A stretch of 51,634 bases of DNA, from the IMG/VR virus record IMGVR_UViG_2579779024_000005. One strand, written 5' to 3'. The notes below the pieces were generated by a model. It was not told the DNA's origin, searched no databases, and saw nothing but the letters and a program-made list of their open reading frames with translations. This document shows positions 28,945-29,586 of this stretch, in pieces (the first letter of the stretch is position 1; each line of letters begins with the position of its first letter). A program made the position numbers and the translations under genes. The DNA is from a virus. Taxonomy: Duplodnaviria; Heunggongvirae; Uroviricota; Caudoviricetes.

Positions 28945-28945
28945 A

Positions 28946-29032
28946 TCACCACCAACGGATTGCCCAGACCAGAACAGCAATGGCCACAATACGAATGGCA
29001 AATGCCATTGCCCGAATAAGTTCAGCACTCAT
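28946..29032 (-). CDS. Tiny hydrophobic ORF (28 aa) overlapping the Rz start (TGAtATG)
   Basis: [28 protein letters not shown]; single predicted TM helix. Confidence 0.3.
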
Positions 29033-29162
29033 CTTTTTAAAGTTCACGATTTCAGCGCAATGACCAGTTTTGCCAGCCCATACAGCATCGGAGACACAGC
29101 AATACCAACAGCCACCCACTTAATAGCAAAAGCCAGCGCTCTGCTGATGTCATCAGTCACTG

Positions 29163-29294
29163 TCACCCCAGCAGCCCCGACGAAGACAACATCACCCAGG
29201 CGAGGGACAGAAAAAGAGCAACCAGCATTAGTGAAAATGAAATACCGACAATCACACACAGGACCTTTGCCGGCGTTATGAGTTTGTCTGACAT
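29163..29294 (-). CDS. Tiny hydrophobic ORF (43 aa)
   Basis: MSDKLITPAKVLCVIVGISFSLMLVALFLSLAWVMLSSSGLLG; AAGGGG RBS. Confidence 0.3.
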   Translation of the reverse strand: MSDKLITPAKVLCVIVGISFSLMLVALFLSLAWVMLSSSGLLG

Positions 29295-29296
29295 AG

Positions 29297-29392
29297 CTAC
29301 CCCTTAATTGCCACAATTAACTGGGATACTACCCATAAAAAAGGGATGCTCCAGACCAGCAAAAATTTCCAGTTTGGTAATTGACTAATCAT
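29297..29392 (-). CDS. Tiny hydrophobic ORF (31 aa)
   Basis: MISQLPNWKFLLVWSIPFLWVVSQLIVAIKG; AGGGAG RBS. Confidence 0.3.
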   Translation of the reverse strand: MISQLPNWKFLLVWSIPFLWVVSQLIVAIKG

Positions 29393-29464
29393 GAGTCGCA
29401 ACTCCCTAATCAGTTTGCTAAAATCAATCAAGGCAGCCTCCCATAGCTTACTGCCATAAAAACA

Positions 29465-29500
29465 AAACCCCGCTTGCTGCCAACAAACGGGGTTTTTACT
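29465..29500. terminator. Hairpin terminator immediately downstream of the endolysin gene
   Basis: aaaccccg-cttgctgccaacaaa-cggggttttt, with an A-run before and a T-run after. Confidence 0.5.
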
Positions 29501-29586
29501 TTTATTCACTTAGGTTTTGCCAGTTCACAGGACTTCGTGTTATCCGCCCGCGTTGGCCAACCTCATTTTTCAGCAAAATATTCTGC

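Follow-up and report, generated by a model that had tools for sequence, protein, structure and literature searches.

In phage lambda the endolysin gene R adjoins Rz without an insert. The three-step model of phage lysis (holin, endolysin, spanin) was recently extended by releasin and Lcc6, and two small non-holin membrane proteins needed for lysis now provide precedents: the Mu releasin gp25 (PMC9239132) and Lcc6 of LambdaSo. The present analysis concerns an Escherichia coli prophage sequence of 51,634 nucleotides (IMG/VR record IMGVR_UViG_2579779024_000005), referred to below as the window, in which 642 nucleotides (nt; positions 28945-29586) separate the endolysin gene from Rz. This interval holds a leader, a terminator hairpin and four tightly packed open reading frames (ORFs) encoded by the same strand, named here A, B, C' and D. 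They are very probably real, separately evolving genes for small membrane proteins. The insert as a whole is best explained as a mosaic, portable cassette of late-expressed accessory inner-membrane peptides, a reading to which we assign a probability of about 0.5. The original prediction for this DNA had announced an insert of ~640 bp between endolysin and Rz and, within it, a hairpin terminator at ~29465-29500, and both are borne out: the stem spans 29496..29464 and is followed by a run of T residues.

Comparison with Described Systems

The proteins gp25 (DUF2730), Lcc6 and the P1 LydC/LydD pair are, like A-D, small non-enzymatic inner-membrane proteins that come in addition to holin, endolysin and spanin. 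They were found recently and partner with signal-anchor-release (SAR) endolysins or pinholins, whereas the families of A-D also accompany non-SAR endolysins. gp25 is encoded beside the lysis genes, Lcc6 elsewhere in its genome. The polypeptides differ in build: gp25 has 99 amino acids (aa) with a cytoplasmic domain of 73 aa and Lcc6 has 65 aa with a cytoplasmic tail of 43 aa, while A-D have 28-44 aa that are almost entirely helix. None of A-D matches PF10805 or is related in sequence to these proteins, and none shows the releasin architecture, an N-terminal transmembrane domain (TMD) with an acidic cytoplasmic domain of ~70 aa (PMC9239132), and only A, with a charged N-terminus of 22 aa ahead of its TMD, loosely resembles Lcc6, by size and architecture only. 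gp25 and Lcc6 have a demonstrated function; A-D are known here from their sequences.

Short membrane proteins of lysis cassettes, as A-D are, also include the S21 pinholin, lambda S107, P1 LydB and T4 RI. A-D match no holin family in Pfam at E ≤ 10. Unlike holins they lie downstream of the endolysin, in a cassette that already has a holin with a dual-start antiholin. At 28-44 aa and without a lipobox, they have neither the TMD with periplasmic coiled coil nor the lipoprotein signal of two-component spanins.

Lambdoid morons such as lambda bor and lom and HK97 gp15 (Juhala et al. 2000, as cited in PMC4104026) are, like A-D, extra genes of patchy distribution between late genes and often code for membrane proteins. 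Here the extra genes do stand between two genes that are adjacent elsewhere (in K-12 Qin and in 2 of the 76 relatives described below), but they do not form an autonomous unit: classical morons have a promoter upstream, a terminator downstream and expression in the lysogen, while here the terminator is upstream, no promoter is apparent and the ORFs are chained into Rz. The type I toxins Hok, TisB, Ibs and ShoB are hydrophobic single-helix peptides of 28-44 aa, as are A-D. Unlike a type I toxin-antitoxin system, A-D are embedded in an operon, and neither a promoter of their own nor a gene for an antisense or divergent antitoxin RNA was found with them. Mobile regulatory boundary cassettes are represented by the promoter-stem-loop (PeSL) elements of T4-type phages and by lambdoid boundary sequences. 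In these too, a short conserved stem-loop element stands at the edge of exchangeable small-gene modules; unlike PeSL, the element of the window is a terminator with a Shine-Dalgarno (SD) leader that lacks a promoter, and its role in recombination is putative.

Four Small Genes Between Endolysin and Rz

The ORFs occupy three frames of the minus strand and are packed closely, each stop codon lying 0-11 nt from the next start codon (junctions TAGctATG, GTGA and TGAtATG). The maximal 19-residue Kyte-Doolittle hydropathy of the peptides is 1.9-2.9. All four belong to PHROG families of unknown function; no match was found for A-D in Pfam (E ≤ 10), NCBIfam or PADLOC, and a search of PDB sequences with the C/D-family profile returned none. 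Selection, assessed with the unique DNA variants from 86 related loci, proved to be purifying in the frames given here but not in shifted ones.

ORF A (29297..29431, minus strand; 44 aa; LIDFSKLIRELRLMISQLPNWKFLLVWSIPFLWVVSQLIVAIKG) most likely starts at the TTG at 29431, behind the SD sequence GGGAGG (29442-29437); started from the alternative ATG at 29392, it would have 31 aa. Its homologues, sought by tblastn against phages, begin with GTG or TTG at the same position, and 45-aa forms are found in SPN3UB, H-19B and Stx2c phages. A charged N-terminus of 22 aa is followed by one predicted transmembrane (TM) helix, and the peptide matches the phrog_6632 hidden Markov model (HMM) at 6e-5. The ratio of nonsynonymous to synonymous divergence (dN/dS) in the family is 0.09-0.15 at a proportion of synonymous differences (pS) of 0.64-0.71, when Salmonella phage SPN3UB is compared with E. 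coli prophage copies. ORF A is not called by PGAP in an identical locus. SPN3UB has a further hydrophobic ORF, of 36 aa (MSKRDVSALCFLMAAAVAISGNDGWGWLIFAGIIIL; 1696-1806 of locus L090, L numbers designating the loci compared), that lies ahead of the leader and hairpin and overlaps the stop codon of the endolysin.

The ATG of ORF B (29163..29294, minus strand; 43 aa; MSDKLITPAKVLCVIVGISFSLMLVALFLSLAWVMLSSSGLLG) lies 2 nt past the stop codon of A (TAGctATG) and is preceded by the SD sequence AAGGGG at 29305-29300, a site that is retained behind three unrelated upstream sequences. B matches phrog_4906 at 4.5e-21 and is kept as an ORF of 43-44 codons in 276 deposited phage records, at 63-100% aa identity. 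Residues D3, K4, K10, G17, S19, F20, W33 and G43 are invariant. dN/dS is 0.52 overall and 0.31 in the TM core. The AlphaFold2 (AF2) model is a single helix of residues 3-38 (pLDDT 85). A variant of B seen in 8 of 81 loci (e.g. L021-L025, near 2660-2785) retains 43 codons and has its last 16 residues frame-shifted (...LVALRLDDVVFVGDAGVRGI). Nearly every copy of B has an open +2 frame, and this is the reason for the 90-aa 'C' calls found in databases.

ORF C' (29044..29166, minus strand) has 40 aa when read from the GTG at 29166, which overlaps the stop codon of B as GTGA, or 38 aa from the GTG at 29160. It matches phrog_3246 (1.9e-27), phrog_1115 (1.7e-24) and a third PHROG (7e-17), and its AF2 model is a single helix of residues 2-39 (pLDDT 93). 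The C family has a dN/dS of 0.14 with 8, 2 and 16 variable sites at the three codon positions, against 0.57 and 4.8 in the shifted frames. Two other ORF calls were considered for this segment. The 33-aa ORF starting at the ATG at 29153 (29153..29052) is the +1 frame of C'; it matches no PHROG and has a dN/dS of 0.57 compared with 0.14. The 51-aa form of C called by PGAP from the CTG at 29199 uses an unlikely start, which canonical starts and frame-specific selection argue against.

ORF D (28946..29032, minus strand; 28 aa) matches phrog_4493 (3.8e-6) and phrog_3246 (9e-5); C' and D match the same PHROG families and are paralogues, and C-type and D-type peptides are joined by intermediates (P0198, P0206 and P0208, e.g. 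MKNGLKLEAPENPEITQAAAFAIRLISIAIFIWAIRWW). D lacks an SD sequence. Its stop codon forms TGAtATG with the start of Rz, as had been predicted, and its last codons hold the SD sequence of Rz (GGTGGTGA). The dN/dS of D is 0.31, with 8, 1 and 10 variable sites by codon position.

These results reshape the run of ORFs of 28-43 codons that the original prediction had placed here. Four ORFs on one strand are present, of which the first has 44 aa and not 31; an ORF does lie at the third place, in a frame other than that of the ATG at 29153; and the plausible ribosome-binding sites hold for A and B and not for D.

In identical loci PGAP calls B, C and D as hypothetical proteins, B being RefSeq WP_001280935.1 and D WP_032140280.1; the other catalogue entries are RefSeq WP_042004856.1, Sakai ECs_5707 and PHROG 4906, 1115/3246/4493 and 6632. 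The ORFs are left unannotated in most phage records, including those of 933W, H-19B and phi24B. They are already catalogued as hypothetical proteins, and in kind they are accessory small membrane proteins, or morons, of phage late operons.

Distribution and Layouts in Related Phages

Parts of the block are held by 2068 of 5426 complete E. coli genomes (38%), and at least 80% of the exact block by 587 of them. The region between endolysin and Rz was surveyed in the 80 closest relatives of the window's endolysin in IMG/VR, 76 of which include Rz. At least one ORF of this kind precedes Rz in 74 of the 76. The layout of the window, A-B-C-D, is found in 24 loci, one 45-aa A-type ORF in 22, C-B in 15, ant-B in eight, one 50-aa D-type ORF in three, and A-B and C-D in one locus each; R directly adjoins Rz in the remaining two. 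The starting point of the original prediction, that R and Rz abut in lambda, agrees with K-12 Qin, but in this endolysin clade the insert is the rule, so that Qin and lambda are the exceptions.

The commonest layout overall is R-hairpin-C (60 aa)-B-Rz, with a gap of 487 nt. Other arrangements are C-D-Rz, A-B-Rz and ant-B-Rz, the latter in 933W and also in Sakai Sp5, whose B is ECs_5707. The order C before B, the reverse of that of C' and B in the window, is seen in PhiR12_1. The cassette is found in plaque-forming or inducible phages (PhiR5_1, PhiR12, 933W and H-19B). The B homologue of 933W (MISDKLITLVK...; L004 2498-2632), between ant and Rz, and the 45-aa A-type ORF before Rz in H-19B (AF034975 17551-17685) are unannotated; for Sakai (L088 8383-8529) only the revised record annotates the B homologue, as ECs_5707.

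The families also occur with other lysis genes and outside lysis cassettes. Three endolysin types stand before the cassette: a SAR lysozyme, a GH108 enzyme with PG_binding_3, and an M15 peptidase. The unit of hairpin, leader and A lies between baseplate genes in Salmonella SEN34 (L089 1891-2099) and between tail genes K and I in the Pseudomonas phages YMC11/02/R656 and D14H (L172 and L173, 2425-2787). The A family is thus not tied to lysis genes. A second TM ORF, of 38 aa, follows the A-like ORF in the Pseudomonas phages.

For the wider C family, two scans of GTDB (one genome per species) gave no confirmed relative, and an exhaustive HMM search of 1.84 billion representatives gave 18 cluster representatives, all short. 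Judged from these searches, the C family has a narrow distribution, and larger proteins do not contain it as a domain.

Cassettes with GH108 or M15 endolysins consist of two holin genes, C (plus B or D) and then, at the position of Rz/Rz1, a gene for a 60-aa lipoprotein of phrog_7528 (L007 2809-2991, L010 2804-2986, L014 2656-2838, L091 2086-2268). The lipoprotein has the lipobox LVGC, a mature part of ~30 aa and two further Cys residues. No Rz/Rz1-like gene was found in these cassettes before the terminase genes. Such phages may be spanin-less or may use an unrecognised outer-membrane step.

A Recombinant Join After ORF B

Comparison with full-length relatives (60 or 48 aa for C, 38-50 aa for D-type ORFs) locates a join within the block. 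Canonical C reads ...AAAGCGCC(A/T)GTAACTGATGAC and the window reads ...GGGGTGACAGTGACTGATGAC: C' lacks the canonical start and ~20 codons (MxKYKRILLRLTMKNGLELKAP), and GTA is changed to GTG at the junction. By segment, the leader and hairpin occur in every type, A has a match in phiSTEC1589 and a more distant one in SPN3UB, B occurs widely, and C'-D-Rz matches the C-D type. On these identities the window is a recombinant, in which the A-B portion passes directly after the stop codon of B into one of C-D-Rz type; this is why C' and D are short at their N-termini.

The 25 loci with the layout of the window differ by 0-1 nt in the ORF block compared with 9-10 nt in the leader. The few differences in the block and their clustering in the leader point to a recent spread with a breakpoint near the hairpin. 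A further join involving C was seen in the predicted protein P0195 (59 aa; from an ENA contig of 554 nt), where the N-terminal half of an S21-type holin is followed by the last 23 residues of C. The join, at ...SQW|VAVG..., reflects either genuine recombination at a short motif common to both or an error of assembly.

Terminator Hairpin and Leader

The stop codon of the endolysin is followed by a leader of ~90 nt (29497..29586, minus strand) that, apart from a variable patch, is kept in R21-type cassettes, among them those of 933W and Salmonella SPN3UB. An intrinsic terminator follows (29454..29496, minus strand), composed of an A-tract, a hairpin of 15 pairs (29496..29464) and a T-run (29463..29454); it bounds the small-ORF cassette on the 5' side. 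The folding energy is -24.2 kcal/mol for the sense RNA (z = -5.2) and -15.3 for the antisense RNA. The element has the attributes of an intrinsic terminator: a GC-rich hairpin with a U-run, a stability higher than that of shuffled sequences, and a structure kept in relatives. In copies from E. coli, Salmonella and Pseudomonas phages the structure is retained via compensatory changes, the stems differing by lineage. A second small hairpin, with two compensated pairs, covers the 5' part of the SD sequence.

Among cassettes behind the three unrelated endolysins, homology starts exactly at the A-tract of the hairpin and continues through a leader of ~30 nt (GTTTCTGACCTTGAGTAAGGCAAGGGAGAAC) into the first ORF. 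The distance between T-run and first start codon is only ~30 nt in the canonical form. The hairpin, the leader and a non-ATG start also precede A-type ORFs, in SPN3UB directly before Rz. Roles that could possibly explain a conserved terminator at the 5' edge of the cassette are antitermination gating, blocking of antisense transcription, a recombination boundary and stabilisation of the mRNA.

No sigma-70-like promoter was found between hairpin and ORFs, either here or in the canonical arrangement, by a consensus scan and inspection by eye, a crude procedure that weak or non-sigma-70 promoters could escape. One antisense promoter-like site lies at 29288-29317; it has a 9/12 match, of which 1.6 are expected by chance, and the canonical module has none. 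Between D and Rz the search for terminators gave only weak 5-pair matches, no more than chance would produce. No Rfam family reached its threshold at 28400-30300 when searched with a permissive E-value, the best hit being ohsC on the hairpin (19.9 bits, gathering threshold 50). The known prophage small RNAs (Pas small RNAs and anti-small RNAs) map upstream of the holin or near PR' and not after the endolysin.

Expression and Role of the Cassette

The features described above suggest an insert that would be a mosaic, portable gene cassette and not the debris of one gene. Since the ORFs have no promoter of their own, their transcription would depend entirely on passage of the Q-modified late RNA polymerase through the hairpin; such late expression by read-through is probable. 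Translation would be coupled along the chain of ORFs into Rz/Rz1, and the peptides would accumulate in the inner membrane alongside pinholin, SAR endolysin and spanin. The arrangement arose from the joining of A-B to C-D-Rz after the stop codon of B, with the loss of the first ~20 codons of C and a GTG left as start. The weakest step is function. The peptides may be non-essential accessories that tune the membrane phase of lysis, in its timing or efficiency, or may serve another late membrane function, presumably through helix-helix contacts and not catalysis. A role in lysis is a tentative assignment, somewhat less probable than its alternatives taken together. It is suggested by the presence of the cassette behind three unrelated endolysin types and of an ORF before Rz in 74 of 76 loci, and lysis modulators, one of the readings offered in the original prediction, are the best available fit to position, operon structure and hydrophobicity. 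As B and C occur with varied holins and endolysins and A-like ORFs in tail clusters, the role is probably a general one at the membrane and not specific to the pinholin or SAR endolysin.

Several observations weigh against the portable late cassette. A strong terminator ahead of genes meant for expression is odd. The cassette is dispensable in principle, R abutting Rz in K-12 Qin, and A-type ORFs with the same hairpin and leader lie in tail and baseplate clusters, outside lysis cassettes. Constraint on B is only weak except in the TM core. C' and D are shorter than full-length relatives, D has no SD sequence, and in phiSTEC1589, which has the same layout, C' is frameshifted and D internally deleted, so that both are dispensable there. 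The pattern W-x-A-x-G-xxx-S-...-G of C recalls TMD2 of the pinholin, but the alignment with the cassette's own pinholin is a 15-column local match with an hhalign probability of 1.4%, which is not significant. The B homologue ECs_5707 is absent from the tables of novel small genes from Sakai ribosome profiling, but those cultures were uninduced, which makes the result uninformative.

Part of the same evidence could be accommodated by other explanations. HK97 gp15 is a moron within a tail-gene cluster, and A-like genes likewise occur inside tail clusters. A-D could be morons expressed in the lysogen to the benefit of host or prophage, excluding superinfecting phages by a block to DNA entry at the inner membrane or acting as membrane toxins of a type I-like addiction or abortive-infection module. 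They are extra genes with a patchy distribution among relatives, at a site where lambdoid late regions are known to collect morons; the peptides are as tiny and hydrophobic as type I toxins, and the antisense promoter-like site at 29288-29317 faces a bidirectional hairpin. We nevertheless consider lysogenic expression unlikely. In two arrangements no promoter-like site precedes the ORFs on the sense strand, the antisense site is of a quality expected 1.6 times by chance, the terminator stands upstream instead of downstream, and the ORFs are coupled translationally into Rz. PADLOC gave no match and Rfam no antitoxin at threshold, in a window whose real hok/sok locus was detected. The suggestion in the original prediction that the ORFs encode type I-toxin-like peptides is for these reasons disfavoured. 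Its other suggestion, that the segments are remnants of one frameshifted multi-TM protein of ~140 aa, was prompted by their contiguity in three frames and is refuted by the homologues. Among 5.8 billion plus 1.84 billion proteins none of the relatives exceeds 90 aa and no fused long ORF was found; the longest, from the collection of 5.8 billion, have 73 aa (B) and 90 aa (C), both being extensions in an alternative frame. Each ORF occurs separately, alone or in another order, with its own start signals. What survives of this idea is the N-terminal shortening of C' and D, which comes from recombination.

That recombination also raises the question of whether the block of the window is largely functionless debris, with C', D and perhaps A as decaying relics. 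The missing native start and ~20 codons of C', the 28 aa of D compared with relatives of 50 aa, its lack of an SD sequence and the broken copies in phiSTEC1589 would agree with decay, and selection within the layout cannot be measured when 25 loci differ by 0-1 nt. On the other hand, A and B are full length, the GTG that replaces the canonical GTA at the junction creates a start codon over the stop codon of B, the 28-aa D with its ATG recurs in other contexts with a dN/dS of 0.31, and the four ORFs are intact in the 587 complete genomes with the block and in the active phage PhiR5_1. Only for C' and D, and only in this layout, is decay a plausible account; for the block at large it is doubtful. 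It is far less likely still that nucleic acid is conserved here in place of protein, as a recombination boundary or an RNA element for regulation or stability in which the ORFs are incidental. The hairpin and leader are kept across genera before different ORF families, the small hairpin over the SD sequence has its two compensated pairs, and differences cluster just upstream of the terminator hairpin, as at a recombination breakpoint. However, codon-position bias and low dN/dS are confined to the ORF frames, HMM matches are at the protein level, and start codons and SD sequences are conserved. A role of the nucleic acid can hold for the hairpin and leader alongside the coding function, not instead of it.

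A bolder version of the portable late cassette would see the hairpin, leader and mini-ORF as one mobile late-gene unit of a hitherto undescribed kind, common to enterobacterial and Pseudomonas phages, with the hairpin as recombination boundary and as a gate passed only by antiterminated or late polymerase, and the peptides as a new class of general inner-membrane lysis regulators. We regard it as improbable. Under it, the peptides of GH108 and M15 cassettes might act beside the 60-aa lipoprotein in a spanin-independent outer-membrane route.

Neighbouring Genes and Other Features of the Window

The lysis genes of the window are all encoded by the minus strand. The P21-type (class II) pinholin S (30813..31028; 71 aa) matches PF04971 at 9e-33, has the dual-start motif MYQM and is labelled 'class II holin' by PGAP in an identical locus. 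The endolysin (29587..30120; 177 aa) is a SAR-type lysozyme (PF00959, 9e-24) that matches phage 21 R (PDB 3HDE/3HDF) and RrrD (4ZPU); by reading of the sequence, its N-terminus YGLSAAVLALIAAGAPAP has weak hydrophobicity. Rz, the i-spanin (28450..28944; 164 aa; PF03245, 4e-51), has the o-spanin gene Rz1 embedded within it (28539..28724, minus strand; PF06085, 1.7e-21).

Two extra genes occupy the interval between holin and endolysin: DUF1327/YdfR at 30464-30808 (minus strand) and, at 30226-30498 (plus strand), an opposite-strand ORF of 90 aa that overlaps the 3' end of the former and is 'hypothetical' in PGAP. Together with the insert before Rz, the lysis cassette is therefore interrupted at both of its internal junctions. 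Just after Rz, an ORF of 71 aa (28238-28453, minus strand) has no Pfam match. In a GH108-type cassette a homologue follows the lipoprotein gene (L014 2878-3225), so this downstream neighbour is also shared between cassette types.

An Rfam scan of the window at gathering thresholds found the sok antitoxin RNA at 40444-40619 (minus strand), which marks a genuine hok/sok type I toxin-antitoxin locus, as well as DicF, STnc100 and two tRNA genes (47047-47098, plus strand; 34785-34974, minus strand; 35674-35747 and 35851-35923, minus strand). Further upstream of the lysis genes, a SASA/nanS-like esterase of 622 aa (34178..32310, minus strand; DUF1737, SASA and DUF6645) is followed in the same frame, with one stop codon between, by an ORF of 375 aa (32306..31179, minus strand). 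The latter repeats the C-terminal DUF6645 of the esterase and looks like a tandem partial duplication.

Implications for Phage Lysis Cassettes

For annotation, A (with its non-ATG start), B, C and D should be called, and not the 33-aa, the CTG-started 51-aa or the 90-aa artefacts. The terminator-led cassette, unusual in its structure, illustrates how small genes pass from one phage late operon to another. Its conserved, mostly unannotated mini-genes lie inside the phage 21-type lysis cassette, which is used in work on pinholins and SAR endolysins and is carried by the Shiga-toxin phages 933W, H-19B and Sp5. If the peptides alter the timing of lysis, phage burst and Shiga-toxin release would be affected; if they have no role in lysis, they would represent a widespread family of late-expressed membrane peptides with another role.

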